A stretch of 32,000 nucleotides of DNA from an uncultured Eubacteriales bacterium (GCA_934462705.1 CAKSIH010000003.1:79718-111717), one strand, 5' to 3'. Positions 1,489-32,000 are shown, counted from the first letter of the stretch. Notes: generated by a model not told the origin, from the letters alone. Numbers and translations are program-made.

Positions 1489-1569
1489 CGTACTCCCCCT
1501 TTATAGTTTATGTTAAAATTATACCATATATAATAATAAAATCAACATAAAATATAAAGACAAATTAAA

Positions 1570-1585
1570 TGTTTCACGTGAAACA
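1570..1585. promoter_or_regulatory. parS: parS centromere site, TGTTTCACGTGAAACA
   Basis: Perfect 16-bp palindrome matching the Bacillota parS consensus TGTTNCACGTGAAACA. The palindrome extends to 22 bp (1567-1588) and lies in the noc-soj spacer. Confidence 0.85.
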
Positions 1586-1644
1586 TTTAAAGGCCAACGC
1601 TCATCATATCAATAAGCACTGGCCTAATAATACAGTATTAAAAA

Positions 1645-2463: not shown

Positions 2464-2573
2464 AAACATTCCCCCTACTTGTCCTAACTTCAAAAAAATA
2501 ATATCACATAACTTTTGAAAATTATTAGAACTTTGTGTAAGCGAAAAATATATATTTATAATAAAAATTAAAC

Positions 2574-3287: not shown

Positions 3288-3291
3288 ATTT

Positions 3292-5166: not shown

Positions 5167-5178
5167 AAAAACCTCCAT

Positions 5179-6546: not shown

Positions 6547-6559
6547 TTTTGCCTCCTTG

Positions 6560-6591
6560 TTTTCAACAAAAAATTAAAAATCGGTTGAAAA
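6560..6591. repeat. inverted repeat TTTTCAAC-N16-GTTGAAAA in the jag-mnmE spacer
   Basis: Perfect 8-bp arms at 6560-6567 and 6584-6591 with a 16-nt AT-rich spacer. The same architecture recurs at 19670-19705. Confidence 0.6.
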
Positions 6592-6623
6592 ATTTAAAAG
6601 GTGACTCATTGCTGAATCACCTT
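6585..6623 (-). terminator. probable intrinsic terminator after jag
   Basis: Hairpin AAGGTGA..TCACCTT (6598-6623, with inner pairs), followed on the minus-sense RNA by a U-rich run (UUAAAUUUUUC). Confidence 0.4.
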
Positions 6624-6652
6624 AAACAACCAATCATAGTATAAAAATTAAA

Positions 6653-7357: not shown

Positions 7358-7398
7358 AAATGACACCTCCGCTTACTGCTAAAATTTAACAACAATTT

Positions 7399-8328
7399 CT
7401 ATATCCTTTTTACTTTAGATTCTTCAATTTCCCTCAAAGCAATTCTTGCTGCTTCTTCCTTTGTATTTATCATGCTAGGGCTGAAAAATTTTGCTATTAT
7501 TACATTTTGCACAACAGATAAAATATTTGATACTAAATAATAAAGCCCTAGCGCAACCGGCGCGTAGAAAACGAATAAAACAAATGGGATTGACATTATG
7601 TATGGAGTCAGTTTCACGCAGCCCTGCTGTGGTATATCAGTTCCTTGTCCCATTTTAGTTCCCAAATGCACAGATAGTATCATTGTCGCCGCACAAAGAA
7701 CCGGCCAAATCCATACCATGGAACTAAATCCACTATTTGCCGGAATCGCAAATAAATCTGTTCCTAAAAATTTAAAACCCGTATTAAAATCCAAAATATT
7801 ACTAATTTCCTGATCACTGAACATTGTAAGTTTATCGCTAACAGACGGGAAAAGTTTTATAACTTCAAGTTGAGCATACTGGGCATTAAATGTCCTGCTG
7901 ATTCCCGGAATTGACGATAAATATTCTATAGCAGAATTAACTTTATCTGCAGATATATGGAACATATTGGTAAGAGGTTTTACAATAGCAGTCCAAACTC
8001 CAAAAAAAGCAAACATTGGAAATAACATTGGCATGCAACCCTTCATAGGGCTCGCACCCTCTTCTTGATACAACTTAGCCAGTTCCTCATTCATTTTTTG
8101 CTTGTTGTTAGCATATTTTTTTTGTATTTCCCGCGTTTTCGCTGAAAACCTCGATGTTTTTGCATTTGCCTTTCGAGACTTTAAGTCAAAAGGGAAAACC
8201 AATACCTTGATTATAATTGTAAAAAGAACTATTGCTATGGCATAATTGTTAAACAAGTCAAAGAAAAACCAAAGCAAATATCCAAAAACTTGACCTAGGG
8301 TATCCCCTACAACATTTAAAATATTCAT
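7399..8328 (-). CDS. yidC: YidC/OxaA membrane protein insertase
   Basis: Multi-TM protein with a conserved region of typical YidC hydrophobic core (KYANNKQKMNEELAKLYQEEGASPMKGCMPML). ATG 8328 has GGAGGA 10 nt upstream. The track GTG at 8358 has no RBS. Confidence 0.9.
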   Translation of the reverse strand: MNILNVVGDTLGQVFGYLLWFFFDLFNNYAIAIVLFTIIIKVLVFPFDLKSRKANAKTSRFSAKTREIQKKYANNKQKMNEELAKLYQEEGASPMKGCMPMLFPMFAFFGVWTAIVKPLTNMFHISADKVNSAIEYLSSIPGISRTFNAQYAQLEVIKLFPSVSDKLTMFSDQEISNILDFNTGFKFLGTDLFAIPANSGFSSMVWIWPVLCAATMILSVHLGTKMGQGTDIPQQGCVKLTPYIMSIPFVLFVFYAPVALGLYYLVSNILSVVQNVIIAKFFSPSMINTKEEAARIALREIEESKVKRI

Positions 8329-8398
8329 AAATTTTTTATCCTCCAAAACTGCATACACAAGTCAATTGTTTTCTTTGCAAATTGCCTCTGGTCTGTCT

Positions 8399-8494
8399 GG
8401 CCCGCCCGCAAGGCCCCCACAAGGCTTTCAGCCTTGTGGGAAGAGTGGCAAAGCCTCTCTTCGAGAGCATAGCCCTCGGCCTTGCGGCCGGGCC
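8399..8494. other. GC-rich multi-stem structured element in the yidD-yidC spacer
   Basis: An outer 17-bp stem pairs 8399-8415 with 8478-8494 (one C-C mismatch). It encloses a perfect 11-bp hairpin (8416-8426 with 8430-8440, 3-nt loop) and a second short hairpin (8455-8459 with 8463-8467). Local GC is far above the AT-rich surroundings. Confidence 0.45.
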
Positions 8495-8561
8495 CATAGC
8501 AAAAACTGATATTAACAGAAAAAACAAAACCTTGGCATCAAAGCGTAAAAGCAAAGAAACT

Positions 8562-8786
8562 TTAAAAATTCTTTTTTTTAGGAACAGGATCATACCCACC
8601 GGGAAAGAGTGGGTTGCATCTCAAAATTCTAAAAGCCGAAAGAGCCAAGCCTTTAACAGCGCCAAATTTACTAATAGCCTCAATAGCATAACAAGAGCAA
8701 GTGGGAAAGAATCGGCACCGAGGAGGAGTTTTAGAGGAGATTTTAAATTGATAAAGCTTAATTAGGCGAATAAGAAAAGCACTCAA
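8562..8786 (-). CDS. yidD: membrane protein insertion efficiency factor YidD
   Basis: 74-aa ORF with the YidD signature [17 protein letters not shown] and RILRCNP. TTG start, located between rnpA and yidC. Confidence 0.9.
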
Positions 8787-8808
8787 AGTGCAGTCACCCC
8801 CTCCAAAA

Positions 8809-9150
8809 TCAAAAATCGAGCAAGACTTTGGCCTCCTTAAGATGCTTTTTCATAACAGACCGAACCATAAAGCTTTTCACAAAGGAGGTTTTAGTTCTTG
8901 CGACAAAAACAATATCAAAACCGGGTTTAATATTTGCAACCAACTGTCTATAAGAATCCTTAATAACGCGTCTTGCACGGTTTCTTCTAACGGCCTTGCC
9001 GACTTTTTTGCTGGTCGTGATACCAAGTCTCACCTGATTAAGTCTGTTTCTGCGAACATAAGTAACAAGGATCGGAGAAACAAAGCAAGTACCTTTAGAA
9101 TAGGCGCGAAGAAACTCTTTATTTTTTTTTAGCGTTAAAATTTCAGACAC
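8809..9150 (-). CDS. rnpA: RNase P protein component RnpA
   Basis: 113-aa basic protein with [17 protein letters not shown] start with AAGGAGG 7 nt upstream. Located downstream of rpmH. Confidence 0.92.
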
Positions 9151-9171
9151 AGATGCACCTCCTTGGTAAAA

Positions 9172-9216
9172 AAGAAAAAAACAGCTAAAACAAAGACCAC
9201 CAAAAACAGTGGTCTT
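9172..9216 (-). terminator. intrinsic terminator/attenuator between rpmH and rnpA
   Basis: Hairpin AAGACCAC/GTGGTCTT (9193-9216, 8-nt loop), followed on the minus-sense RNA by UGUUUUAGCUGUUUUUUU. Confidence 0.6.
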
Positions 9217-9246
9217 ATAAAAATCTAGAGAAAGGAATGCAAAAGA

Positions 9247-9381
9247 CTAGTGAGTGAGGCGATGTCTCCCTTTAGCTCTTCTGCGCGCCAAAACTCTTCT
9301 ACCGTTTCTATCAGACATTCTTTTTCTAAACCCGTGTTCTTTTTTTCTGTGAAGCTTTTTAGGCTGATAAGTTCTTAACAT
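9247..9381 (-). CDS. rpmH: 50S ribosomal protein L34
   Basis: Hand translation gives [44 protein letters not shown] (44 aa). AGGAGG lies upstream. The ORF is too short for the ORF track. Confidence 0.93.
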
Positions 9382-9422
9382 AAAGACGTCCTCCTTTCAA
9401 CAAAATAGCCTTATGGTATAAC

Positions 9423-9452
9423 ATTATACCTTAAGGAAGAGAGTTTTGTCAA
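9423..9452 (-). promoter_or_regulatory. sigma-A type promoter for rpmH
   Basis: On the minus strand, TTGACA (9452-9447), an 18-nt spacer and TATAAT (9428-9423), about 40 nt upstream of the rpmH ATG. Confidence 0.6.
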
Positions 9453-9540
9453 CCACAGAATAAAAAAATAAGATAGGGGAAAAAATAGAGGCAATTACTA
9501 AGCACAAAGTGAAAACTAATTATGGGAAATAAATAATAAA

Positions 9541-9569
9541 TTGAAAAGTAAAAAAAAATGTGTTATGCT
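9541..9569 (+). promoter_or_regulatory. candidate dnaA promoter
   Basis: TTGAAA (9541-9546), a 17-nt spacer, and TGT-TATGCT (extended -10, 9561-9569). An alternative TATAAT lies at 9570-9575. Confidence 0.4.
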
Positions 9570-9685
9570 TATAATGTATAATTTTATCATGGAGTAACTT
9601 TACCCCAAAAACAAAGAGCGATTGTAAAAACGATTCACAAAACAGCCACGATAAAAAACAAAATTAAACCCGGAGGGATACATAA

Positions 9686-11005
9686 ATGGAATCTTTTAAC
9701 GAGGCGTGGGAGCTTATTTGCGACTATTGCAAAACTCGTATTACCGACGTAGCTTATAAGACCTGGATAAGCAGAATTGAGCCAATAAGCATAGATTTTA
9801 CAACAGGTGACGCAAAGTTAATGGTGCCAAACGAGTTTCATCGGCAAACGCTAACAAGATGTTACACACCTCTACTAAACAGTGCATTTGAAGAGATATT
9901 TGGGTCCATCGGAATAAATATTTGTTTCTTGGTACCGAATCAAACCGCACAAAAACCGACATCAAATAACGACAACCTAGCAATAGACGCCGTGCCAGAG
10001 CTCACTTTCGACACATATATAGTAGGGTCATCAAACAAATTTGCACATGCTGCCTCACTGGCTGTGGCGGCAAATCCAGCAGGTTCGTATAATCCTTTGT
10101 TCATATATGGAAATTCGGGGCTTGGAAAAACGCACTTGCTTTACGCAATTTGCAACGATATAAAAAAGACACACCCCGAGATGAGGACACTGTACATAAA
10201 AGGGGATGAATTCACAAATGAGCTTATAGATTCAATAAGGAAGAGCACAACGAGAGAATTTCATCAAAAATACAGACAAACAGATATCTTATTGGTGGAC
10301 GACATACAATTTATAGCAGGAAAAGACTCAACACAAGAGGAATTTTTCCATACATTTAATACATTATACGAAGCAAAAAAACAAATAGTACTCACATCTG
10401 ACAGACCACCAAAAGAAATTCAAACATTAGAAGACAGGCTGCGCACAAGGTTCGAGTGGGGCCTAATTGCAGATATTCAGCCACCAGATTTTGAAACAAG
10501 AATAGCGATTATAAAAAGAAAAGCGGAACTTTTAGATATCGAAATTCCACACGAAGTTTGTGAGTTTATAGCAACCAAGCTAAAAACAAATATTCGTCAG
10601 CTAGAAGGCGCAGTGAAGAAGATGAAAGCATACTATCTGTTGCAAGGGGACACACCAAGTAAACAAACAGCGCAGGCAGCAATTTCAGATATACTTAACA
10701 ACGATCAGCCGCCGCCACTTACAGTTGAAAAGATAATCGAAGAAGTTGCGCGAACCTTTGGAGTCACAGCAGATGAGATTCGGTCATCCAAAAGATCATC
10801 AGTAATATCGAATGCACGACAGGTTGCCATGTATGTGGCAAGGGAAATTACGCAACTTTCCATGAGTTTAATCGGCAAAGAATTCGGAAAAAGAGATCAT
10901 TCCACAGTGGTATATGCAATACAACAGGTGGAGAAAAATATGGCATTAAACCCTAAAACAAAAGCGATGATAGAAGACACTATAAAGAACATTCGAGACA
11001 GGTAG
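9686..11005 (+). CDS. dnaA: chromosomal replication initiator DnaA
   Basis: 439 aa with Walker A GNSGLGKTHLL, Walker B LLVDDIQF and the domain IV signature RDHSTVVYA. GGAGGG lies 8 nt upstream of the ATG. Confidence 0.97.
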   Translation: MESFNEAWELICDYCKTRITDVAYKTWISRIEPISIDFTTGDAKLMVPNEFHRQTLTRCYTPLLNSAFEEIFGSIGINICFLVPNQTAQKPTSNNDNLAIDAVPELTFDTYIVGSSNKFAHAASLAVAANPAGSYNPLFIYGNSGLGKTHLLYAICNDIKKTHPEMRTLYIKGDEFTNELIDSIRKSTTREFHQKYRQTDILLVDDIQFIAGKDSTQEEFFHTFNTLYEAKKQIVLTSDRPPKEIQTLEDRLRTRFEWGLIADIQPPDFETRIAIIKRKAELLDIEIPHEVCEFIATKLKTNIRQLEGAVKKMKAYYLLQGDTPSKQTAQAAISDILNNDQPPPLTVEKIIEEVARTFGVTADEIRSSKRSSVISNARQVAMYVAREITQLSMSLIGKEFGKRDHSTVVYAIQQVEKNMALNPKTKAMIEDTIKNIRDR

Positions 11006-11221
11006 CTAAAAAGTTGAAAACTAATTAACAATTCAACAAAAGCTGTTAAATTAGAGAAAATTAGGGGTCAAAGTTTTAAACAAAAATTAAACAATTAACA
11101 AAAAGTATTCAACAGAGACGTTGAAAAAAATTAATGGAGTTAAAAAAGAGAAAAGAAATTAACAAAGGACAAACAACATACAAGCATTGTTTAAATAACG
11201 AACAACCTGGGCTCGATAAAA

Positions 11222-11292
11222 TTTTCAACAAATTAACAGGCCCTACTGCTATTACTATAATTTAAAAATATTAAATGCTATAAAAATAAAAG
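11222..11292. other. oriC: putative oriC unwinding module: tandem box-like 9-mers, GC cluster, DnaA-trio-like repeats, AT-rich tract
   Basis: TTTTCAACA (11222-11230) and AAATTAACA (11230-11238) are followed by GGCCC. Then come CTA CTG CTA TTA CTA TAA (11243-11260) and a nearly pure A/T run to about 11292, immediately upstream of dnaN. Confidence 0.5.
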
Positions 11293-11305
11293 GACGGTAG
11301 ATTCA

Positions 11306-12412
11306 ATGAAAATAATGTGCAATCGCGCAAGTCTTGTTGAAGCAGTGTTAAATGTTCAAAGAGCTGTTTCTACAAAATCATGTTTAACAGCACTTGAAGG
11401 AATTCTAATAAAAACGCAAGAGGATAAAATTGAACTATGCGGGTATGACCTTGAAATCGGAATAACAACCACAGTTCCCGCGAATATATCAGAACCTGGA
11501 GAAATAATAATAGGAGCAAAAATTTTTTCCGACATAATAAGACGATTGCCGGGAGGGGATATAGAAATCACCTCAGACGACAAACTGGTAACAACAATAA
11601 AAAGCGAAACCAGTGTATTCTCGCTATCGGGGCTGCCGGCAAGCGATTACCCAGAATTACCAAGCGTAGAAAGCCACGCAACATTTTGCATAAGTACAAC
11701 TGCACTGAAAAGCATGATAAAGCAAACCATATTTGCAGTCTCGGATTCTGATTCAAAACCCATAAATACAGGAACCCTTTTTGAAATCAGCAATGGTAAT
11801 ATTAATCTCGTTTCTGTAGATGGCTACAGACTTGCCAAAAGAACCGAGAAAATCGACATGAAAGAGGAATGCAAATTTGTAGTTCCAGGAAAAACACTAA
11901 ACGAAATTCTAAAACTCATTCCTGAAAAAGATGAACCAGTGACAGTAATCGTAGGAAGACGACATATTACCTTCAAGGTGGGGAATTATAATATAATTTC
12001 AAGGCTGCTTGAAGGAGAGTTTCTTGATTATACATCAGCCATCCCAACAGAGCACAACACAAACATAATAGCAAATACAAGAAACCTAATCGATAGCATC
12101 GAAAGGGTTTCTCTGGTGATCACAGACCGCTTAAAAAGCCCGATCCACTGCATTTTTGCTAACAATAGCGTAAAAATCTCATGCATAACAAATATTGGCA
12201 GAGCCAATGACGAGACAGACCTTATAATGGAAGGCGACAATTTGGAAATAGGTTTCAACAATCGTTATTTACTAGATGCATTACGCAACTCCGACACCGA
12301 TGAAGTACGCTTGCAAATGAACGGTCCACTGGGTCCTTTAAAAATTCTCCCAAAGGAAGGGGAATCTTTCATATTTTTAGTACTGCCGGTGCGCTTAAAG
12401 GCAGGAGAATAG
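11306..12412 (+). CDS. dnaN: DNA polymerase III beta sliding clamp
   Basis: 368-aa ORF following dnaA. The N-terminus has the typical DnaN pattern (MKIMCNRASLVEAVLNVQRAV) and the C-terminus ends LVLPVRL. Confidence 0.95.
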   Translation: MKIMCNRASLVEAVLNVQRAVSTKSCLTALEGILIKTQEDKIELCGYDLEIGITTTVPANISEPGEIIIGAKIFSDIIRRLPGGDIEITSDDKLVTTIKSETSVFSLSGLPASDYPELPSVESHATFCISTTALKSMIKQTIFAVSDSDSKPINTGTLFEISNGNINLVSVDGYRLAKRTEKIDMKEECKFVVPGKTLNEILKLIPEKDEPVTVIVGRRHITFKVGNYNIISRLLEGEFLDYTSAIPTEHNTNIIANTRNLIDSIERVSLVITDRLKSPIHCIFANNSVKISCITNIGRANDETDLIMEGDNLEIGFNNRYLLDALRNSDTDEVRLQMNGPLGPLKILPKEGESFIFLVLPVRLKAGE

Positions 12413-12442
12413 TTTTTCTCAATTTTTGAAAGGTAAGAAAAA

Positions 12443-12655
12443 ATGGAAACAATAAAAATACAAATATCTGGCGATTACATCCGGCTAGACGCAATTCTTA
12501 AGCTTGCAGGAGTGGTGCCAACGGGTGGTCAGGCAAAACTTTTAATTCAAAATGGCAAGGTTTTAGTCAATGACGAAATTTGCACGCAACGGGGCAAAAA
12601 AATCATCGTCGGCAGCAGAATTCAAGCGGAAAATACAATCATAGAGGCAAGTTAA
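12443..12655 (+). CDS. yaaA: S4-domain RNA-binding protein YaaA
   Basis: 70-aa ORF between dnaN and recF, with the S4-like motifs IRLDAILKLAGVVPTGGQAK and NGKVLVNDE. Confidence 0.85.
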   Translation: METIKIQISGDYIRLDAILKLAGVVPTGGQAKLLIQNGKVLVNDEICTQRGKKIIVGSRIQAENTIIEAS

Positions 12656-12656
12656 G

Positions 12657-13757
12657 TTGACAATACGGGAACTTAAATTTAAAAATTTTAGAAATCTGAA
12701 GCCAGGCAAGATGCAGCCAAGCGAAACCATAAATGTAATCCACGGTGAAAACGCTCAAGGAAAAACCAATTTGATTGAGGCAATGTGGCTATTCACAGGA
12801 GGGAGATCTTTTCGCGCCACTAAAGATGCGGATCTCACCATGTTTGGAGAAAACCGGACAGAACTTGAAATGGAATTAAAAACGCAGGGGCGCAATCAAG
12901 ATATAAAAATATCCATAGAAAAAGGCGCGCGAAAAGTTGAAGTAAACATGGTGCAAAAACGGTCGTCAGAGATGATAGGTAAATTTTGTGCAGTGGTTTT
13001 CTCGCCAACACATCTATCGCTCATAAAAGACGGACCATCGCAAAGGCGGCGCTTTTTGGATGCAGCAATATGTCAGCTGTGGCCAATTTACGCAAAGAAT
13101 TTAATAAAATACAACAAGACGATAAATCAACGAAACGCGCTTTTAAAAAGCTGCAAACAAAGCTCTCGATTCAGCAATACCATAGAAATCTGGGATGAAA
13201 GCCTGGCTGTGTGCGCAGCAGAAATTACAAAAAAACGATTGGAATACATAAAACTACTTCAAGATTATGCCGTAAGTGCTTACCACGGAATTTCTTCTGG
13301 AAAAGAGGAGTTAAGTTTGCAGTATAAATCAAGTTTGCCGAAGGGCGAAGTTGAAAATGCAAATGAGGCAGCACTTTCAGAACTATATTTACAAGTTTTT
13401 CAAAAGAGCAAAAATGAAGATTTTGCTCTGGGTTTTACAACAAAAGGCCCACATCGGGATGATTTTGACATAAAAGTAAACGGCAAACATGCAAGAATGT
13501 TTAGTTCACAAGGGCAGCAAAGAAGCGTAGTTTTGGCAATGAAGCTTGCAGAGGCGAAGATAATTGAAAAAGAGCGGTATGAAAGCCCGGTAATTCTGCT
13601 AGACGACGTAATGAGCGAGCTTGACAGCAAGCGACAAAACTACATTTTAAACGCACTGGGAAATTTACAAGTATTTATAACCTGCTGCAACCCGGAGATT
13701 TTAAACCAGATGGCGGGCGGCAAAACCTTTTTGATTGAAAAAGGGGAGATAACATGA
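12657..13757 (+). CDS. recF: DNA replication and repair protein RecF
   Basis: Walker A GENAQGKTNLIEA, the ABC signature FSSQGQQRS and Walker B ILLDDVMSELD. TTG start. Confidence 0.93.
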   Translation: MTIRELKFKNFRNLKPGKMQPSETINVIHGENAQGKTNLIEAMWLFTGGRSFRATKDADLTMFGENRTELEMELKTQGRNQDIKISIEKGARKVEVNMVQKRSSEMIGKFCAVVFSPTHLSLIKDGPSQRRRFLDAAICQLWPIYAKNLIKYNKTINQRNALLKSCKQSSRFSNTIEIWDESLAVCAAEITKKRLEYIKLLQDYAVSAYHGISSGKEELSLQYKSSLPKGEVENANEAALSELYLQVFQKSKNEDFALGFTTKGPHRDDFDIKVNGKHARMFSSQGQQRSVVLAMKLAEAKIIEKERYESPVILLDDVMSELDSKRQNYILNALGNLQVFITCCNPEILNQMAGGKTFLIEKGEIT

Positions 13758-14039
13758 AGAATTTATATTTGCATTTAGGCAAAAAAGTTGAAGTAAAAAC
13801 CACAGACATTGTTGGAGTTTTTGATCTGGATACGGCATCGTTGCAAAAGGGAACGCGCGAATTTTTAGAAAGAGTCCAAAAGGAAGGAAAAGTAATAAAC
13901 GTGTCAGAGGAATTACCAAAATCATTTACACTGGTGCAGCAAGATGGCGAAGAAGGGGTTTATGTAGGCCCGCTTATGGTATCAACATTGATGTCACGGC
14001 TGGGGATTCCCCAATTAACAATTTTGGAGAGCAATCAAA

Positions 14040-14050
<11 letters not shown>
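13754..14050 (+). CDS. remB: DUF370 / RemB (YaaB)-like protein
   Basis: 98-aa ORF overlapping the recF stop by 4 nt (ATGA). It occupies the conserved recF-remB-gyrB position seen in Bacillota. Confidence 0.75.
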
Positions 14051-16314
<2,264 letters not shown>

Positions 16315-16340
16315 TTAATTTTAACTTATGGAGGAATAAA

Positions 16341-17027
16341 ATGAACGAGCACGAAGACAAGTTAAACATTACAAGCGGAGCGAATTCCGAGGACGGAAAA
16401 ATTGTATTAACAGAGTCGGAAGAAGAATCTCAAGATGATAAACCTGACCCGTGCGAGAGCGACTGGGATGGCACGGAATCGGAATTTGTGGAGGATGATG
16501 ATGCAGAGGAATACGAGGAAAAGTATAGCGGAATAAAGCTTAGCTATTCATTAAAGCGCGAGGAGATAACATCATGTTTAAAGCACGTGGGGTTTAATAA
16601 AAATAGCGGAATTCGCCAAATTGTAGAGCTATGCTTGCTGACAATCCTTGTAGTAATGTTTTTTGTAATGTATTCGGTGACGGGATTGAAAACCAATTTA
16701 GTGCTGGCTGGTTTGGCAATACTGACAATGGTGATTCTTTTGGTGGTGCCGGCTGTAAGCTTAAATATAAACGCGGAAAAAATGACAACCGGGAGACAGC
16801 TTGATGTAGAGATTTATCCTGACAGCATAGAAGTGTACAGTGGAGCGTCGAAGTGGGAAATACCAATGGATGGCAGCAGTCAATTTGAGGAATTTAATAA
16901 AATGCTGCTTGTTTATATGCCGCAAGAGAAAATATTTATTATCCCGATAAGGGCTATAGAGCCGGACTTTTTAGCAGATGTTCAGGCAATGATAGTGGCT
17001 GGAACAAGTCCGAAGACAGACGATTAA
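16341..17027 (+). CDS. hypothetical membrane protein with acidic N-terminal region
   Basis: 228 aa with a D/E-rich first 60 residues, two predicted TM helices (LCLLTILVVMFFVMY and LAGLAILTMVILLVVPAV) and a C-terminal soluble part. It may be YcxB-like, but I cannot verify this. GGAGGA lies upstream. Confidence 0.6.
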   Translation: MNEHEDKLNITSGANSEDGKIVLTESEEESQDDKPDPCESDWDGTESEFVEDDDAEEYEEKYSGIKLSYSLKREEITSCLKHVGFNKNSGIRQIVELCLLTILVVMFFVMYSVTGLKTNLVLAGLAILTMVILLVVPAVSLNINAEKMTTGRQLDVEIYPDSIEVYSGASKWEIPMDGSSQFEEFNKMLLVYMPQEKIFIIPIRAIEPDFLADVQAMIVAGTSPKTDD

Positions 17028-17067
17028 GGCAGCAAAGTATGAAAAATAAGAAAGAGGTGTCATTTTT

Positions 17068-19545
17068 TTGAATACCGATGAAAATTTAGTATTGGATTCC
17101 AAAATAATAAATGTAGAAATCGAGAAAGAAATGCAAAAGTCTTTTTTAGATTATTCAATGTCGGTAATAGTAGCAAGGGCGCTTCCAGACGTGCGAGATG
17201 GTCTAAAACCGGTACACAGACGAATTTTATACACGCTGTTTGAAAACGGACTTGGACCAGACAAAGCATACAGAAAATGTGCGGATACGGTAGGCTCGGT
17301 GTTAGGTCGGTATCATCCTCATGGAGATACTTCGGTTTACGACGCTTTGGTAAGGCTTGCTCAGGATTTTTCCATGCGATACATTTTGGTTGATGGCCAT
17401 GGAAATTTTGGTTCGGTGGACGGTGATCCGCCGGCTGCATACCGTTATACAGAGGCGAAAATGAGTAAGATGTCGGTGGAGATGCTGACGGACATAGACA
17501 AGGACACGGTAGATTTTACGCCAAACTACGATGACAGGCTTAAAGAGCCGGCAGTGTTGCCGTCGCGGTTTCCAAATCTCTTGGTGAATGGGTCAACAGG
17601 GATAGCCGTAGGCATGGCGACCAACATACCACCGCATAATTTGGGCGAGGTTGTGGATGCAATTTGCTATTTTATAGATAATCCCGATGCGACCCTGGAA
17701 GATTTAATGATGTATATAAAAGGCCCGGATTTCCCAACAGGTGCGCAAATTATGGGTCTGAGCGGTATAAGGGCGGCATATGCTACAGGGCGCGGAAAAA
17801 TTACGGTGCGGGCATGTGCAGAAATTGTTGAGGATAAAAATGGCAGATTTAAGATAGTGGTAACCGAGCTGCCATACCAAGTTAACAAGGCAAGGTTATG
17901 CGAGAGCATAGCAGAACTCGTAAAAGATAAGCGAATAGAGGGGATTTCAAATATAGAGGACCACTCTGATCGGAACGGAATGCATATTCGGATTGACCTT
18001 AAACGTGACGCGACACCGCAGGTTGTACTGAACCAACTTTACAACTATACGCAGATGCAAATAACATTTGGTGCAATAATGCTTGCAATAGTAAATGGTG
18101 AGCCCAAAATTTTGACCCTTCACGACATGATAAAGCATTATGTCGATTTTCAAATTGAGGTTATCACACGGCGTACCGTATTTAATCTGAAAAAGGCTCG
18201 CGAGAGAGCGCATATTTTAGAGGGGCTAAAAGTTGCAATTGACAACATAGACGAGGTAGTGGAGATCCTCAGGTCATCCAAATCGGTAGCAGAGGGCAAA
18301 ACCAGATTAATGGAGCGCTTTAATCTCGATGATATACAGGCTCAAGCAATAGTGCAAATGAGACTAGGCCAGTTAACGGGTCTTGAGCGCGGAAAAATCG
18401 AGGAAGAGTTGAAAGAACTAGCAGAGAAGATATCGGATTTAGAGGACATATTAGCGAATAAAGAAAGGCTTTTATCGATACTTAAAGAGGAGATAACACA
18501 AATAAAGGCAAAGTTTGCAGACGATCGCAGAACTCAGATAACCGCGGTGACCGGCGAAGTTGATATAGAGGACTTAATACCGCAAGAAGAGTGCGTTTTA
18601 ACCATGACAAACTTTGGCTACGTAAAAAGGCAGAAAATCGATGCATATAAGCTGCAAAAGCGTGGCGGCAAGGGAATCTCAGGAATGACACGACGCGAAG
18701 AGGACTTTGCGAGTGAAATGTTTATAACGAATACGCATGATTACGTAATGTTCTTTACGAATTTAGGCCGAGTCTACAGGTTGAAGTGCTATGAAATTCC
18801 GGAAGGTTCCAGGTCCTCCAAGGGCACAAATATTGCAAATCTTATACCAATAGTGCCAAACGAAAAAGTAAATGCAATGATAAAGGTCTCAGCGTTTGAT
18901 GACGAACACTATCTTGTGATGGTAACACGGCATGGTATCATAAAGAGGACGCTGCTTAGTGCATATGATACGGCAAGAAAGGGCGGTTTAATTGCTATTG
19001 ACCTTGATGACGGCGATGAGCTTGCTTGGGTAACCGTTACAGATGGCTCGGCAGAGTTAATCGTGGCAACCAGGGACGGCATGGCGATAAGAATTTTAGA
19101 AACAGATATAAGACCGCTGAGCAGGGCGGCGCGAGGGGTTCGTGCGTTGACGTTAAACCCGGATGATGAGGTTGTTGGTATGGCGCATGTAAAGGAGAAT
19201 GAGCTTTTGCTGACGGTATCTGAAACAGGGTACGGAAGGCTGTCTGAATTTAGTGAATATCGCTTACAACGTAGAGGTGGCAAAGGTTTAATAAATTATC
19301 ACGTGGAAAAATACGGGAAGGTGGCATCAATAAAATCAGTAAGCCTTGATGATGATGTCATATTAATCGCAGAAAATGGAGTGATAATTAGGATAGCCGT
19401 TAACTCTATCAGGGCTTGTTCGAGGGGCTCCAAAGGTGTTAAAGTAATGAGGATCGGAGAAGGCAACAAAATAGTAGCTGTGGCCACGGCTCCTCATGAT
19501 GAAGAAGCCATGGATGAGTTTGAAGAGGTTGAAGAAGAAAGTTGA
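17068..19545 (+). CDS. gyrA: DNA gyrase subunit A
   Basis: 825 aa with the motifs [17 protein letters not shown] and the active-site region [10 protein letters not shown], plus an acidic C-terminal tail. TTG start 8 nt after AAAGAGGTG. Confidence 0.97.
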
Positions 19546-19669
19546 GAAAATAAAATCAGGCATAATTTGGGGAGCACGAGGAGAATCAAAAAAATGCGAT
19601 ATATCCAGAATATCGTAATGAAAAAGTCCCAAATAAGATTAAAAAATTAAAATTTTAGAAAAAATAAAA

Positions 19670-19705
19670 AGTTTTCAACGAATTTTTAAAAGTTTGTTGA
19701 AAACT
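19670..19705. repeat. inverted repeat AGTTTTCAAC-N16-GTTGAAAACT upstream of rpe
   Basis: Perfect 10-bp arms (19670-19679 and 19696-19705) with a 16-nt AT-rich spacer. The core and spacing are the same as at 6560-6591. Confidence 0.6.
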
Positions 19706-19738
19706 TTGCTTCTAGAGGGCAACAAGAGGAGGGTTACG

Positions 19739-20398
19739 ATGGAGATATCACCATCAATGCTGGCAAGCAACTTTGCAAATTTGAGCGATGAATTGAAGAA
19801 AATTGAGAAAAATGGCGCGGACTACGTGCATTTAGATGTAATGGATGGAATGTTTGTTCCGAATATCACGTTTGGTGCGCCAGTTATAAAATCGATGCGA
19901 AAGTACAGTGTACTGCCTTTTGACGTGCATTTAATGATAAATGAGCCATTTAGGTATATAGACGACTTCGTGAAGGCTGGCGCAGATATTATAACATTTC
20001 ATGTAGAGGCTGAATCGGATATAGAGGGTACAATCCATAAAATAAAGAGCGGTGGTGTAAAATGTGGATTATCAATAAAACCGGGAACGCCAGTAGAGGA
20101 GTTGTATCCTTTTATAAAAGAGATTGATTTAGCGCTAGTTATGACGGTTGAGCCGGGGTTTGGGGGTCAAAAGTTTATGCCGGAAATGATGGAGAAAGTA
20201 AGGCTTTTGAAAGATAAGATAACGGAAACCGGTGCGGCAGTAAAAATAGAGGTTGACGGCGGCATAGATGAAAAAACAGCAAAACTAGCAGGGGCCAGCG
20301 GTGTGGATATTTGTGTAGCAGGGACAGCAATTTTTAATGCAAGCAATATGCAAGCAAGTATAAAAGCAATAAAAAACGGTAACCATAAGCAAATATAA
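19739..20398 (+). CDS. rpe: ribulose-phosphate 3-epimerase
   Basis: Motifs HLDVMDGMFVPNITFG, DVHLM and MTVEPGFGGQKF. ATG 19739 follows GAGGAGGG. The track TTG at 19694 lies inside the inverted repeat and adds 15 non-conserved residues. Confidence 0.93.
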   Translation: MEISPSMLASNFANLSDELKKIEKNGADYVHLDVMDGMFVPNITFGAPVIKSMRKYSVLPFDVHLMINEPFRYIDDFVKAGADIITFHVEAESDIEGTIHKIKSGGVKCGLSIKPGTPVEELYPFIKEIDLALVMTVEPGFGGQKFMPEMMEKVRLLKDKITETGAAVKIEVDGGIDEKTAKLAGASGVDICVAGTAIFNASNMQASIKAIKNGNHKQI

Positions 20399-27230: not shown

Positions 27231-27513
27231 TACTCTTTTAGTTTAATAGCCTTTGTCTATAGTTATATGCTCTGTCTAATTATTAAATCCAATTATTGCT
27301 CTCTTTTAACAGTTATTTGTTTTGCTAACCCGATATCTCTGTATATCCCCAATTTTGTTTGATCCACCCAATTATGTGATTGCCGAGAATGTCAGTGGTT
27401 GTCATATTAAAGTTTTGCTCATTTTCTATGTTACAACAAAATATTCTTTATAATTTGATGGTAATGTTATATAATAAGATATGATTTGACTTTATTAAAG
27501 AGGAGTGTTACAT

Positions 27514-28449
27514 ATGCCACTAGTAAATACAAAAGATATGTTTAAAAAGGCTTATGATGGGGGGTATGCAATAGGCGCGTTTAACGTGAACAATATGGAG
27601 ATTGTACAAGGAATTACAAAAGCGTGCAAGGAGCTAAATTCGCCGGTAATTTTGCAAGTTTCAGCTGGAGCACGAAAGTATGCAAGCCATGAATATTTAA
27701 TAAAATTGGTGGAAGCAGCTGTGAAAGAGACCCCTGTACCAATTGCGCTACACTTGGATCACGGGGACAGCTTTGAATTATGCAAAAGCTGTATAGATGG
27801 CGGATTCACCTCGGTTATGATAGATGGTTCACATCTTGATTATGAGGATAATATTGCACTTGCTAAGAAGGTTGTAGAATACGCACACCCTCGCAATGTT
27901 ACAGTGGAAGCAGAACTTGGTCAACTGGCAGGAATAGAAGATGATGTAAACGTTTCAGCCGAGGATGCATCATACACTAATCCAGCTCAGGTAGAGGATT
28001 TTGTGGAGCGCACAGGCGTAGATTCATTGGCAATTGCAATAGGAACAAGTCACGGTGCATACAAATTCAAACCGGGGCAGAAACCACAATTAAGGTTTGA
28101 TATATTGGAGGAAGTTGAAAACAGATTGCCGGGATTTCCGATAGTACTACACGGAGCATCATCGGTGATACCCGAATTTGTTGAAATGATAAATCGATAT
28201 GGCGGAAAAATGCCGGACGCAATTGGAATACCGGAAGAGATGCTTAGGCAGGCAGCCAAGAAAGCTGTATGCAAAATCAACATAGACTCAGATTTAAGAT
28301 TGGCGATGACGGCAACAATAAGAAAATATATGGCTGAAAATCCCAGTCACTTTGATCCCAGACAATATTTAGGGCCTGCAAGAGAGGCAATTTATAAAAT
28401 GGTTGTGCACAAAATTAATACCGTTTTGGGATGCGCAAATAAACTATAA
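27514..28449 (+). CDS. fba: class II fructose-1,6-bisphosphate aldolase
   Basis: MPLVNTKDMFKKAYDGGYAIGAFNVNNME and the motifs LHLDHG and GTSHGAYKF. ATG 27514 lies 8 nt after AAGAGGAG. The track GTG at 27505 lies within the RBS. Confidence 0.95.
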   Translation: MPLVNTKDMFKKAYDGGYAIGAFNVNNMEIVQGITKACKELNSPVILQVSAGARKYASHEYLIKLVEAAVKETPVPIALHLDHGDSFELCKSCIDGGFTSVMIDGSHLDYEDNIALAKKVVEYAHPRNVTVEAELGQLAGIEDDVNVSAEDASYTNPAQVEDFVERTGVDSLAIAIGTSHGAYKFKPGQKPQLRFDILEEVENRLPGFPIVLHGASSVIPEFVEMINRYGGKMPDAIGIPEEMLRQAAKKAVCKINIDSDLRLAMTATIRKYMAENPSHFDPRQYLGPAREAIYKMVVHKINTVLGCANKL

Positions 28450-28475
28450 AAAAAGCACCATATGGTGCTTTTTTG
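28450..28475 (+). terminator. intrinsic terminator after fba
   Basis: AAAAAGCACC-ATAT-GGTGCTTTTTT. Confidence 0.8.
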
Positions 28476-28582
28476 TAATTAAGTGAGAACATACTAAAAA
28501 TTTTAAAAATAAATCTATTTTATAAACATAATTAATTTTGGCTGTGTTATAATGATAGCGCCTATTTGAAAGGAGAATGAAT

Positions 28583-28659
28583 ATGTAATTTTTTTACAAA
28601 TAATCTTAGCGATTGTAATGCACGTAATTCCAGTGGAAGCATTTTTTATTTGCAATTGA
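28583..28659 (+). pseudogene. decayed 5' remnant of the secreted-paralog family (RBS plus signal-peptide fragment)
   Basis: AGGAGAATGAAT-ATG resembles the leaders of the intact copies. After the ATG there is an immediate TAA and a 1-nt shift. The shifted frame reads VIFLQIILAIVMHVIPVEAFFICN-stop, alignable to KKFLSIILAIAMIILPVGAISCFADG of copy 2. Confidence 0.6.
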
Positions 28660-28963
28660 AAAATAAAGTAATTTTGAGTTATTAAAGTGGAGACAAGCAG
28701 AGCGAAAAAGTAAGCATAGGTTAGTCTGTTTAAAGAAAAAGTGGTAATTATTTAGCAGAATTTTCATTGTTTAGTAAGAATGAAAGATTTTTAAATGTAC
28801 AAAGTGTAACTATATTAAATAAACATCTAAATTCAAGGATGTTGGATTTATTTTTGGGTTAAAATTTAAAATGGGAGAGGCCGTGCGCTGCAGGGATAGC
28901 ATTACACTTTATGTCAATATATTAGCTTGCATGTAATTTTTTATGATTTATAAGGTGTTTATA

Positions 28964-28992
28964 TTGAAATTATTGGTTGAATTGGTTATAAT
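28964..28992 (+). promoter_or_regulatory. sigma-A type promoter for the secreted-paralog array
   Basis: TTGAAA (28964-28969), a 17-nt spacer and TATAAT (28987-28992), about 100 nt upstream of copy 1. Confidence 0.55.
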
Positions 28993-29090
28993 AATAATAT
29001 ATGCATATATAAAAAGTTGGTTTTTTAATAAAAATCAACGAATCACAACCAAAATCTAAATTTTTAAATTTTACCCAAAGGAGAGTACAT

Positions 29091-29675
29091 ATGAAAAAGT
29101 TTTTATCAGTATTTTTAGCACTGGCAATATTAATAGTGCCGGTGGGAACGATGTCAAGTTTTGCAAACGGAGAACAATATGGAGAGGTTGGCTTTAGTGA
29201 TTTATTAAGGACGGATACCATAGATCAAATTACAGTGCAGATTGGTACAGATCCAACTGGTGAGGTCATGTTTAGCGGGTTTTTAATCGGAGAAAGAGGT
29301 CGGATTCTGAAAATTTTTAAAATTCCGGACCAACGAGATATGCGCTTTATTGAACGTTTTGGATTTGTAAGTAAATTAAAAGAGTGGAAAAGAGGCAGTG
29401 CATGGGTTTTATTTGATTTTAAGGTAAATGGGAATATCGTAGCATATGCGCGATATTACGACTGTGAAGGAGAGTGTATTAAAGGCTGTAATTATAAGCG
29501 AGCTATTAAAAGTTATAAATGTATGTCATTTTATAGAATTGAAGACAGACTTGTTAGAGCCTGCAATTGTTTAATGAAGAGCGATGATGACGATGCTTTT
29601 CTAAGCGCTGAAGAAAGGCTTGCTGCAGCCTGCGATTGCTTAGTGGGTGATTGCGACATATCTTTTTTTAGGTGA
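29091..29675 (+). CDS. small secreted protein, paralog family copy 1 (with Cys-rich C-terminal extension)
   Basis: 194 aa. The signal peptide is MKKFLSVFLALAILIVPVGTMSSFA-NG. The RBS is AAAGGAGAG. Confidence 0.8.
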   Translation: MKKFLSVFLALAILIVPVGTMSSFANGEQYGEVGFSDLLRTDTIDQITVQIGTDPTGEVMFSGFLIGERGRILKIFKIPDQRDMRFIERFGFVSKLKEWKRGSAWVLFDFKVNGNIVAYARYYDCEGECIKGCNYKRAIKSYKCMSFYRIEDRLVRACNCLMKSDDDDAFLSAEERLAAACDCLVGDCDISFFR

Positions 29676-29748
29676 TGTTGCAACGAAGCTAGCAATGCAT
29701 AACATTAATATTTAATATTTTGAAAAATTTATCCAAGGGAGAATACAC

Positions 29749-30195
29749 ATGAAAAAATTTTTATCAATAATTTTAGCAATTGCAATGATAATATTACCGG
29801 TGGGAGCGATATCTTGTTTTGCAGATGGAGGAAATAATGATCAATCTGTTTTTGATGTACTGAGGGAATGTGAGATCGGTAAGACAAGGGCAGACATAGT
29901 TTTGCTAAATGATGGAAGATACTTTGCGCAGATGTCTTTCTTTGGGGAGGATGATCAATATCTTGGAGCGAAAGAAGCAAGCCAGGAGTCTTATAGGAGG
30001 GTTGGAAGGACTCTTATTGCACTTGGGATAGGGGAAAAAATTAGAGAATTGGGATGTAACAAGGCTCACGTTATATGTGAGAATTACGTTGGCGGTTGTT
30101 ACTCTATAATCATTAATTTTTATAACTATGAGGGGATAATCGTTAAAACCTTAAAAAAAGAAGGTTACAACAGAGAGATGGAACTTGGAATCTAA
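29749..30195 (+). CDS. small secreted protein, paralog family copy 2
   Basis: 148 aa. The signal peptide is MKKFLSIILAIAMIILPVGAISCFA-DG. The RBS is AAGGGAGA. Confidence 0.8.
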   Translation: MKKFLSIILAIAMIILPVGAISCFADGGNNDQSVFDVLRECEIGKTRADIVLLNDGRYFAQMSFFGEDDQYLGAKEASQESYRRVGRTLIALGIGEKIRELGCNKAHVICENYVGGCYSIIINFYNYEGIIVKTLKKEGYNREMELGI

Positions 30196-30265
30196 TTATT
30201 TCTGGGATCCGGTTAAATTACCCCCCAATAATTAATTTTAATAATTTTAATTAGGAGAGAATAGC

Positions 30266-30694
30266 ATGAAAAAATTTTTGTCAGTAATTTTAATGTTAAC
30301 AATGCTAATAGCGCCGGTGGGAGCGGCCTCAAATTTTACGGCCGGAGTATCAAAATATGATTTTGTTGATGATCTGAACAATGCGAATTTTGATATTATT
30401 TTTACGAAAATTAAGGTAAATGCAACCGGTGCTTATAATGCCAAAATTAGTATTTATGGAAGAGAGGACGAATTAATTACAGAAATTGTTTTTACTGAAG
30501 CAGATCATAATCTACTAATCGAAAATGTGTTGGAAGAATTTAACATATACCATGGAATGAGAAGTTTTGATACTCCTAAAGCTGAATTGCTGATCGAATC
30601 CATACAATCTGAAGGTACCGTTAGAGCAATTGCAAGATTTTTCAATGCAAATAATGAAGTCGTAAGAACTGTACCTTTTGGTATCGTTCTTTAG
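30266..30694 (+). CDS. small secreted protein, paralog family copy 3
   Basis: 142 aa. The signal peptide is MKKFLSVILMLTMLIAPVGAASNFTA-G. The RBS is TAGGAGAG. Confidence 0.8.
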   Translation: MKKFLSVILMLTMLIAPVGAASNFTAGVSKYDFVDDLNNANFDIIFTKIKVNATGAYNAKISIYGREDELITEIVFTEADHNLLIENVLEEFNIYHGMRSFDTPKAELLIESIQSEGTVRAIARFFNANNEVVRTVPFGIVL

Positions 30695-30876
30695 CGGTAA
30701 TTCTTATAAGCACGCGCAGGCAGGCCTGAGACAATATTTGCGGCTACATAAACGCGAAATAAAAATTTATTAACGACTTTGTAGGCTTTTAAATAATTAG
30801 TGAAATGACGGGTTAGCAATACTGGACGCTGTTTCGAGGCAATAAGAGGATCTAATTTTAATTTGGAGGAATATGT

Positions 30877-31302
30877 GTGAAAAGGCTTTTATCAATAATT
30901 TTGGCACTGGCAATGTTAATAGAGCCAGTGGGAGTAATTTTCTGCTTTGCAGCTGGCAGAACACCAGAAGAAGTTCATATGGACCTTATAAGACTTATGA
31001 ATGAGCAAGAATTGGGGAAGGTAAGAGTAATTGCTACTTTACTTATTGATGGAACAATGAACATACAAATTGCTTATTTTGACAGAGATGGAAGATTTAT
31101 AAAAAATGTTGATGTAAAAGAGGAAGACTATGAGGATTTAGAAAAAGAAATTCAAGGTGCTGAAGTTCTTGGAAAATTAAGAGGACTAAATTTAAGTGTA
31201 GCGCAAATTATATATGAAGTTTACGTTAAAGGTAATTCAGATGTAAATATATATTATTTAGACTCAATTGGCAGAATTAAATGCACTGAATACGAAAATT
31301 AA
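30877..31302 (+). CDS. small secreted protein, paralog family copy 4 (GTG start)
   Basis: 141 aa. The N-terminus is (M)KRLLSIILALAMLIEPVGVIFCFAA-G. The frame was chosen by homology to the other copies. GGAGGA lies upstream. Confidence 0.72.
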   Translation: MKRLLSIILALAMLIEPVGVIFCFAAGRTPEEVHMDLIRLMNEQELGKVRVIATLLIDGTMNIQIAYFDRDGRFIKNVDVKEEDYEDLEKEIQGAEVLGKLRGLNLSVAQIIYEVYVKGNSDVNIYYLDSIGRIKCTEYEN

Positions 31303-31319
31303 ATTTAAGGAGAATACGC

Positions 31320-31730
31320 ATGAAAAAGTTTTTATCAGCAGTTTTAGCATTGTCAATACTAATAATGCCGGTGGGGGTAATATCCAGCTTTGCTGATGGT
31401 ATTTTAGAAGGGGAACTTAGTCCCCTTATTAGATTCATAAAAGAACAGCAATCTGAAAAACTTAAAATAATTGCTACCATGTTTATTGATGGAACATTGG
31501 ATGTAGGAATAGTTTATCTTGGAAAAGATGGAAGATTTTTAGAAAATATCAGTGCAGATAGAGATCTTTATAGGAATTTTAGAAGAAGATTTGAATTTTT
31601 GGGAACTTTGAACAAAATGAGGCGGAACAGGTTAATTGCAACACAAATGGTATATGAGGTAGATGGCAAAGACTGTTTTATACGCACTTTTTATTTAGGT
31701 GCAGAAGGCCAATTTAAGAACATTTTGTAA
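31320..31730 (+). CDS. small secreted protein, paralog family copy 5
   Basis: 136 aa. The signal peptide is MKKFLSAVLALSILIMPVGVISSFA-DG. It starts 17 nt after the copy 4 stop. The RBS is AAGGAGAA. Confidence 0.8.
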   Translation: MKKFLSAVLALSILIMPVGVISSFADGILEGELSPLIRFIKEQQSEKLKIIATMFIDGTLDVGIVYLGKDGRFLENISADRDLYRNFRRRFEFLGTLNKMRRNRLIATQMVYEVDGKDCFIRTFYLGAEGQFKNIL

Positions 31731-31800
31731 ACACTTAAGTGTGTAGCTGTGAACAAAATTAAATGCAAACTTTAATAAAATTAGATTAAGGGGAATATAC

Positions 31801-32000
31801 ATGAAAAAATTTTTATCAGCACTATTAACATTGTCAATGCTGATAGTGCCGGTGGGGGCAATATCCAGCTTTGCTGATGATGGACAAGGCAGTACATTTA
31901 ACTTTGGTGAAGTAATGAAAGCCTGCAATATAGATATGATGCAGGTAATTGCTGATGTGAATAAAGATGGAAAATTTGTATTACATTCGCGTTGCTTTGC
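31801..32000 (+). CDS. small secreted protein, paralog family copy 6 (partial, runs off the right edge)
   Basis: Hand translation gives MKKFLSALLTLSMLIVPVGAISSFADDGQGSTFNFGEVMKACNIDMMQVIADVNKDGKFVLHSRCFA... The RBS is AAGGGGAA. It is not in the ORF track because it has no stop in the window. Confidence 0.75.
   Translation, partial: MKKFLSALLTLSMLIVPVGAISSFADDGQGSTFNFGEVMKACNIDMMQVIADVNKDGKFVLHSRCF

Follow-up and report, generated by a model that had tools for sequence, protein, structure and literature searches.

In staphylococci the Lpl/DUF576 and SSL proteins are encoded by chromosomal tandem clusters of diverged exported paralogs that carry conserved signals and are thought to be host-facing; both families consist of larger proteins than those treated here, with different folds, in well-studied pathogens. 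The tipC immunity-gene arrays of Streptococcus, for the type VII secretion toxin TelC, contain up to 15 tandem paralogs, each exported or anchored through a conserved N-terminal signal, with a conserved 5' block and a variable middle, and show recombination between paralogs (PMC9484751). TipC itself is a soluble helix-strand domain whose helices back one face of the sheet, the open beta-sheet face binding the toxin (PMC6193138). The esaG immunity arrays of Staphylococcus and Bacillus are strings of non-identical paralogs, 12 of them in S. aureus RN6390, which recombine through shared blocks (PMC9484751); in EsaG a four-stranded sheet lies between five helices (PMC9616950). Here we describe an array found in a 32,000-nucleotide (nt) stretch of DNA, referred to below as the window, from an uncultured Eubacteriales bacterium (GCA_934462705.1 CAKSIH010000003.1:79718-111717). 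It consists of 13 same-strand paralogous genes and one decayed copy, lying between fba and ychF, and its protein family is new at the level of both sequence and fold, though the genomic architecture is one already seen in tipC, esaG and, in staphylococci, the lpl and ssl clusters.

An earlier note on this DNA had described six or more tandem paralogs continuing past the window edge, and five complete open reading frames (ORFs) plus one cut by the edge are indeed present, all on the plus strand. The gene fba occupies 27505-28449, and after a gap of 641 nt the array begins with copy 1 (29091-29675; 194 amino acids (aa)), made up of a signal peptide, a helix-strand core domain and a C-terminal extension. 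It is followed by copy 2 (29749-30195; 148 aa), whose sister-species ortholog L007_1 is 60% identical in the mature part, copy 3 (30266-30694; 142 aa), copy 4 (30877-31302; 141 aa, with a GTG start), which is the member modelled with AlphaFold2, and copy 5 (31320-31730; 136 aa), the closest paralog of copy 4, starting 17 nt downstream of it. Copy 6 has its first 66 codons in the window (31801-32000). An exact look-up of copy 5 retrieved 15 contigs, the longest being a 158,956-bp ENA human-gut metagenome scaffold (locus L001) that matches the window with 0 mismatches across the common 10,681 bp. On it copy 6 is complete (L001 10482-10901; 139 aa), and copies 7-13 follow as same-strand ORFs at L001 10993-14913, past the window edge. 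The whole array spans L001 7772-14913, with 13 genes of 136-194 aa separated by intergenic gaps of 17-182 nt. Extending the contig rightward, as had been proposed, thus places the end of the array at copy 13, after which come a SLOG-domain gene and ychF.

The 13 mature domains, each of about 110 aa, are significantly homologous to one another beyond their shared signal peptides: in leave-one-out tests, in which every paralog, shorn of its first 25 residues, was matched to a profile built from the remaining twelve, the scores were 27-78 bits. At the same time the paralogs of this genome are 61% identical in the signal but 23% identical in the mature part, and invariant columns are found only in the N-terminal signal peptide, apart from one turn glycine; the description of very divergent mature parts sharing one plan therefore holds. 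Using a 33-sequence alignment, AlphaFold2 modelled mature copy 4 with a pLDDT of 92.8 and a pTM of 0.81. The model contains a helix (5-18), three strands (23-31, 36-43 and 49-55), two helical segments (61-69 and 72-78) and three further strands (83-91, 96-103 and 109-115), so that the predicted order is helix, three strands, kinked helix, three strands, forming a six-stranded sheet with two to three helices. The two halves of the domain are themselves homologous (hhalign probability 96.4%, E 1.3e-9). With high confidence, then, the mature domain is an internal duplication of a helix-plus-three-strand unit of about 55 aa, which explains the succession of helix, hairpin, helix and second hairpin that the earlier note had picked out and that the AlphaFold model matches. 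The conserved mature positions are turn glycines, alternating strand hydrophobics and a few helix core positions. No conserved polar residue is present in the mature-domain alignment and hence no candidate active site, which points to a scaffold rather than an enzyme. The isoelectric point (pI) of the mature proteins ranges from 4.6 to 9.2 across the copies.

Each protein carries, with high confidence, a predicted cleavable Sec signal with predicted cleavage after (S/C)-F-A, and the paralogs are probably exported. All copies start MKKFLSxxLxLxMLIxPVGxxSxFA: MKK or MKR is followed by a hydrophobic core of 12-13 residues, Pro17, and a c-region with (S/C/N/Y)-(F/V)-(A/T) at -3 to -1. Ala stands at -1 in 12 of the 13 copies, and small residues occupy both -3 and -1 in 12 of 13. 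Judged by rule, the n-region, h-region, c-region and -3/-1 positions are those of a Sec, signal peptidase I substrate, in agreement with the classical Sec signal cleaved after SFA that had been noticed before. A signal-anchor reading was rejected because four copies have a charged residue in the c-region. A lipoprotein (signal peptidase II) reading was also rejected, since the Cys at -3 is missing from five of the 13 copies, Cys and Ser are exchanged between orthologs, and four copies would have Phe at -1 of the lipobox. We also discarded a disulfide linking Cys23 to the conserved Cys that precedes strand 4, Cys23 lying upstream of the predicted cleavage site. The exhaustive protein search described below returned eight proteins matched by their signal peptide only (P0038-P0045), of the MKK(L/V)LS…(I/V)(G/N)xxSxFADE type; among them are one of 843 aa that is rich in proline and small ones whose hydrophobic stretches may span the membrane. 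Because this signal type is common to such unrelated proteins, it would be an ordinary signal of the lineage and not a dedicated sorting tag; what is shared suggests a lineage-typical signal-peptidase site.

Every copy is headed by an equivalent 5' homology block running from -30 to +81 relative to the start (29061-29171, plus strand, in copy 1) and comprising the ribosome-binding site, the spacer and the signal-peptide codons. Mean pairwise nucleotide identity between paralogs is 56-82% in this block and 42% in the protein-guided mature alignment, against about 30% for unrelated sequence; no 3' homology block was seen among the paralogs. Two contigs of the species, L001 and L003, show 12 nt differences in 12,222 bp compared, all of them within one 34-bp tract of the copy 3 signal-peptide codons (30280-30313, plus strand; L001 8961-8994), where 10 of the 12 differing nucleotides match copy 2. 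Since the differences are confined to 34 bp and ten of them equal copy 2, this is a clear case of gene conversion with the neighbouring copy. We conclude with high confidence that the family grows by tandem duplication, gene conversion keeping the 5' block alike while the mature surfaces diverge.

Of the 13 genes on L007, a contig of a sister species, eight pair colinearly with those of L001, seven at 52-67% and one at 40% identity, and five have no L001 counterpart above 39%; the gene content at the fba-ychF locus varies between sister species. The ratio of nonsynonymous to synonymous substitution (dN/dS) between mature-domain orthologs is 0.31-0.76, pooled 0.47, compared with 0.02 for fba at comparable dS, which bears out the rapid divergence that had been surmised. 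By structural class it is 0.36 at the core and highest, 0.62, at exposed helix positions. The genes are intact and under purifying, though relaxed, selection in several species and are therefore not relics -- a possibility the earlier note had kept in reserve as a refutation -- and so the genes are real, their fold is constrained and their surfaces evolve fast. That the ORFs are nevertheless decaying, duplicated junk with no selected function is the least credible of the explanations considered. Such decay would fit the clear degeneration of one copy, the frameshift that splits one member, the fusion of copies 1 and 2 in one strain, and a dN/dS that is high for a bacterial gene. Against it, 13 intact ORFs occur in every contig of the species, and at least three or four sister species have intact orthologs; in all structural classes dN/dS stays well under 1, with lower values at the core; the ribosome-binding sites are uniformly strong, and the predicted fold is confident.

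Searches with all 13 members against Pfam-A, NCBIfam, PADLOC, PHROGs and PDB sequences gave no significant or above-threshold match. An exhaustive HMMER search of 1.84 billion representative proteins gave 40 matches at E <=1e-3, about 30 of them true family members; no family match carries a Pfam domain. Two giant repeat proteins among the matches (P0030 and P0033, with 23 and 13 matched stretches) were rejected, as they are runs of near-identical repeats whose weak hairpin-like matches had been summed. Two word-indexed searches, one of which used a 35-sequence mature-only profile and returned only family members, added no relatives. Among GTDB species genomes, a pattern for the signal peptide only gave at least 600 unrelated matches and no relative, and six 8-mers of copy 1 gave no relative either. 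A 39-nt pattern from the 5' block, run against metagenome contigs, retrieved 27 loci (L020-L046), all of which were set aside as an unrelated lipoprotein. That protein has about 280 aa, comes from an abundant gut organism and looks like the binding protein of an amino-acid ABC transporter; by chance, the 39-nt pattern is identical to its first 13 codons. In structure comparisons with Foldseek, the mature copy 4 model matched nothing at E <=1e-3 in PDB or BFVD. With neither a confident hidden Markov model (HMM) match nor a confident Foldseek match, the family cannot be assigned, as had been said of it from the start. The array is likewise not recognisable as an anti-phage defence or phage element, there being no PADLOC, PHROGs, phage or plasmid match.

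All samples with family members are gut metagenomes, among them the Hadza, Nepal and MERR22 sets, and every family context examined is an array, at the fba/ychF locus wherever the flank is visible. L007 is a 7-kb contig made up entirely of 13 members, and L008-L011 hold 3-7 members each. Two contigs (L016 and L017) read fba, a copy-1-like gene, a copy-2-like gene, and two others (L014 and L015) read last member, SLOG gene, ychF. In L012 fba is again followed by a family member; this fba is 97.4% identical to that of the window, the member only 39% to any window paralog. A 2.8-kb ENA contig with a GC content of 42% (L018) carries, in tandem, a more distant set of proteins of 163-212 aa, which share the signal type but whose mature parts have marginal profile similarity only. 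Given that shared signal type and marginal similarity, the superfamily may extend further than HMMER detects.

How, then, does this family compare with those already described? With tipC arrays it shares an array of many paralogs (13), a conserved -30 to +81 block, a conversion tract and a predicted six-stranded sheet. It differs in that there is no sequence match to TipC, and the top 50 Foldseek PDB matches do not include TipC2 (6DHX); TipC has about 180 aa and seven strands and is membrane- or lipid-anchored, whereas most of the present members have no anchor; and tipC arrays adjoin telC and type VII secretion system (T7SS) genes, none of which occur in about 42 kb here. With EsaG/DUF600 the family shares tandem paralogy, and BH3703 and EsaG are among the top Foldseek matches, weak as these are; EsaG, however, is cytoplasmic and without a signal peptide, whereas all the array members carry a predicted one. 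No HMM match to PF04634 (DUF600/EsaG) was found in any of the 13 members at E limits of 1-10, and there was no PDB sequence match. The array has no sequence relationship to the staphylococcal Lpl and SSL families and no lipobox.

PepSY and BLIP are also small exported units of a helix plus antiparallel sheet; BLIP repeats such a unit in tandem and binds its target with the joined sheet, and PepSY units end in a '...D..G.v' strand motif. The FYD..G.iV strand-turn motif conserved in the mature domain is reminiscent of that motif, and a faint PepSY resemblance had been suggested for these proteins. It drew no HMM support: no hmmscan match to PepSY (PF03413) or BLIP (PF07467) appeared at E up to 1-10, in a range where the HMMER filters drop most matches above about 0.1, and neither family is among the top 50 Foldseek PDB matches. 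The repeat of the present family, moreover, is one helix plus three strands in about 55 aa, which sets it apart from both.

The best PDB matches from Foldseek were the platforms of MICA, UFA, CD1d, ULBP and m157, together with the DUF600 proteins BH3703/EsaG, at template-modelling (TM) scores of 0.32-0.46 and root-mean-square deviations (rmsd) of 6-10 A, and the best BFVD matches were cytomegalovirus proteins like those of the major histocompatibility complex (MHC), a group to which m157 and m144 belong; weak matches to the 9-1-1 clamp were also returned. The predicted domain resembles MHC class I-like proteins in having a pseudo-twofold platform in which two repeats form one antiparallel sheet with two helices. 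The platform matches themselves, however, have TM scores of 0.36-0.46, rmsd of 6-10 A and 6-14% identity, and the arrangement differs: in MHC platforms four strands and a helix occur twice, giving eight strands in about 180 aa, whereas here a helix precedes three strands, giving six strands in about 110 aa. We take the MHC-like and DUF600 matches to reflect no homology but a likeness of overall shape, that of a sheet made of two repeats together with helices; the likeness to MHC platforms is most probably a convergence of shape between a predicted model and known structures.

The inhibitor, immunity, adhesin or antigen roles raised in the earlier note are conjecture. A possible function, which we put forward tentatively, is that of an inhibitor battery, or a kind of 'poly-immunity', working outside the cytoplasm. 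Exported together, the paralogs would bind or neutralise specific proteins beyond the membrane, and the variable surface of each would recognise a different target; these targets would be envelope-acting toxins or enzymes of competitors, and the last member in related species would carry a two-helix membrane anchor. This proposal draws on the fixed non-catalytic scaffold, the diverging surfaces, array dynamics like those of tipC and esaG, the presence of DUF600/EsaG immunity proteins among the best, if weak, structural neighbours, and the two membrane helices predicted for the last gene of relatives; the streptococcal tipC arrays would be its closest working analogy, with the esaG arrays second. 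Several findings weigh against it. As had been remarked for the window, no partner gene is in view: neither the 28 kb upstream nor the 5.5 kb downstream contains a gene for a toxin, T7SS, LXG protein, bacteriocin, transporter or protease, and no cognate toxin (EsaD, YeeF, TelC or an LXG protein) or T7SS locus is linked to the array within about 42 kb of unbroken sequence, of which 32 kb are the window and about 9.7 kb the part of L001 past its edge. For 11 of the 13 mature proteins no anchor can be seen; in a single-membrane cell they would therefore diffuse away, which suits secreted factors better than membrane immunity. Classic immunity islands vary between strains, whereas here the six contigs of the species appear to agree in their 13-gene content in every overlap (gene sizes are equal except for copy 4 in L006, 137 vs 141 aa; the base-by-base comparison covers L001 and L003). 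No structural site class has a dN/dS above 1. The structural matches are weak, at TM <=0.46, rmsd 6-10 A and none at E <=1e-3, and the EsaG fold differs from the predicted arrangement of a helix and three strands repeated twice, with TM scores to 2ia1 and 8gup of 0.32-0.42.

Some of these same findings would sit well with secreted factors facing the host or the environment, which would be released into the gut lumen, each paralog binding a different host or dietary molecule (a protease, antibody, receptor or mucus) as an inhibitor, adhesion helper or immune modulator in the manner of the staphylococcal SSL, Eap and SCIN families. Such a role is rather unlikely, though it deserves weight: the predicted signal is cleavable and 11 of the 13 proteins lack an anchor, the scaffold is non-enzymatic with variable surfaces and a wide range of pI, the organism is known only from human-gut metagenomes, a colonisation function would fit a gene content that is stable in this species, and the best Foldseek neighbours are MHC-I-like platforms and viral MHC-like immunoevasins. 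Those neighbours, on the other hand, stand at TM of about 0.4 with an element order unlike that of MHC platforms, Pfam and HMM scans found no known host-binding motif or domain, and the staphylococcal examples come from pathogens of far wider distribution, whereas the present family is confined to a few rare species. A narrower version, in which the platform would mimic the MHC class I-like ligands of NKG2D and other natural killer (NK) cell receptors (MICA, ULBP, m157) and engage host immune receptors or their ligands, has only a slim chance of being right; if true, the battery would be a bacterial counterpart of the cytomegalovirus families of MHC-like immunoevasins.

A few members depart from the common plan. 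Copy 1 has a Cys-rich helical C-terminal extension of about 70 aa (window 29500-29675), with two similar helices bearing A-C-x-C-L in the motifs EDRLVRACNCL and EERLAAACDCL and nine Cys in total; it gave no Pfam match, and is kept in the orthologs P0005 and P0008 and more loosely in L007_7. Copy 9 (L001 12043-12621) and its orthologs P0006 and P0007 end in a conserved hydrophobic tail, …IIDKLGLWHQLICVYFLFA, which may be a membrane-associating segment absent from the other members. In sister species the homologue of copy 13 is a single protein of 273 aa with two predicted membrane helices. In L001 a tract of eight A residues (A8; L001 14896-14903, equivalent to about 36215 in window numbering, past the window edge) splits this last gene, leaving a secreted part of 184 aa and a membrane ORF of 82 aa with two helices. 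The tract is 2 nt shorter than the sequence of the relatives, the sister species reading GCTAAAGAAAAATCACAG, and each of the five contigs of this species that span the position has A8. The tract may represent a fixed frameshift or, alternatively, allow slippage that gives both soluble and anchored forms. A protein of 329 aa found on two ENA contigs (P0047) is an in-frame fusion of copies 1 and 2, in which a deletion has removed the intergenic region and most of the copy 2 signal peptide; it is either a structural variant of some strains or an assembly artefact.

These members bear on two further explanations. The paralogs might be subunits of a single extracellular or envelope assembly, a hetero-oligomer joined edge to edge through its beta-sheets, with the anchored last member as its base and copies 1 and 9 as specialised subunits. 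We regard this as improbable. The order of orthologs is broadly kept (eight of 13 L007 genes colinear with L001), the genes form one apparent operon, a membrane domain occurs only in the terminal gene of the relatives, copy 9 has its hydrophobic tail and copy 1 its conserved extension, and a pseudo-dimeric helix-plus-three-strand domain recalls ring-forming clamps, as do the weak 9-1-1 clamp matches. Subunit interfaces are normally conserved, however, and here nothing past the core is; the proteins evolve fast, and sister species differ through the gain, loss or replacement of members. In this species a frameshift splits the anchored member, yet the array has apparently been kept, and no sortase or pilus genes are nearby. 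Nor is it at all probable that the array encodes Sec-dependent, bacteriocin-like antibacterial effectors aimed at competitors. Small proteins with Sec signals in a diversifying array would suit such effectors, and the two-helix membrane protein at the array end could in principle be an immunity protein, but 13 toxins with one candidate immunity gene is an implausible arrangement, and that gene is moreover part of the last member in relatives; there is also no catalytic or pore-forming motif and no match to a toxin or bacteriocin family, and the mature proteins are soluble helix-strand domains.

A G+C-rich, intrinsic-terminator-like hairpin with T/A runs on either side (28449-28474; L001 7130-7155) directly follows the fba stop and separates it from the array. 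The decayed extra copy (28570-28859, plus strand), recognised from its sequence, the repeat families and family-HMM matches, is the remnant that had been pointed out at the 5' end of the cluster. Its first part (28570-28656; L001 7251-7337, profile positions 4-22, E 0.002) has a ribosome-binding site, an ATG and an immediate TAA, followed by an out-of-frame signal-peptide remnant, FLQIILAIVMHVIPVEA; its second (28734-28859; L001 7415-7540, profile 56-80, E 0.012) resembles the region of the first beta-hairpin. The region's best promoter-like site lies about 100 nt upstream of copy 1 (28964-28992, plus strand; L001 7645-7673) and is a sigma-70-like candidate, TTGAAA-17-TATAAT, put forward from its 11/12 match to the consensus only. 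No terminator-like site was found in any intergenic gap, the array-strand matches falling only inside the ORFs of copies 1 and 10. With short gaps free of such sites and a strong promoter-like site ahead of copy 1, the array is likely to be co-transcribed. An AAGGAGA-type ribosome-binding site lies 7-8 nt upstream of every start, confirming the strong site earlier ascribed to each gene.

The host is, with high confidence, an uncultured low-GC human-gut bacterium with a gene order typical of Bacillota. Housekeeping genes flank the array on both sides; it is carried on the leading strand, at a distance of about 19 kb from dnaA. The region had been called an AT-rich accessory segment: the AT excess is present, if modest (GC 0.328 in the array vs 0.375 in the remaining window), but 'accessory' is too strong a label, since the fba-to-ychF locus is syntenic across related species and carries related arrays in the sister species too. 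On L001 the order 3' of the array is a two-helix membrane ORF of 82/103 aa, a 113-aa SLOG/YAcAr protein, ychF, ogg and mecA. The flanking genes scanned with Pfam, or having precomputed Pfam matches, are housekeeping genes except for the one small SLOG-domain gene; a small flanking ORF of 85 aa had no significant Pfam match, and there is no integrase among the matches reported for the scanned flanking genes. A tRNA scan, Rfam and tblastn against phages and plasmids gave no tRNA gene, RNA family or phage or plasmid match associated with the array. A mobile island was accordingly rejected, given the locus syntenic in sister species, the housekeeping flanks and the lack of any tRNA, phage or plasmid match.

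Directly 3' of the array, the 113-aa SLOG-domain protein (L001 15358-15699; YAcAr and DprA-like, Pfam E ~5e-7) looks like a stand-alone, truncated domain of the DprA/Smf type, and its gene adjoins the array in sister species as well (L014, L015). At the other end, positions 1-20000 of the window span the chromosomal replication origin, with a change in the sign of the GC skew near 9 kb; soj/parA, parB, rsmG, mnmG, mnmE and yidC lie on the minus strand, and dnaA, dnaN and gyrB, confirmed with Pfam, on the plus strand, where the ORFs at 12657-13757 and 17068-19545 are presumably recF and gyrA.

Arrays of the tipC, esaG, lpl and ssl kinds are found at the front line of the conflicts between bacteria and their competitors or hosts. 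What is new in the present family is that it has no sequence relative outside about 30 clusters of 1.84 billion proteins and no confident structural neighbour, and is unlinked to a toxin or secretion system. If its members are extracellular neutralisers, they would make up a free-standing, exported poly-immunity battery in a gut anaerobe and would provide a compact, designable two-repeat binding scaffold of about 110 aa; if they are instead host-facing, they would be a new family of commensal effectors. Either way, the 13 natural variants on one scaffold, together with the orthologs of sister species, are a ready-made set for mapping specificity, of interest to those who work on bacterial conflict systems and on the effectors of gut commensals.

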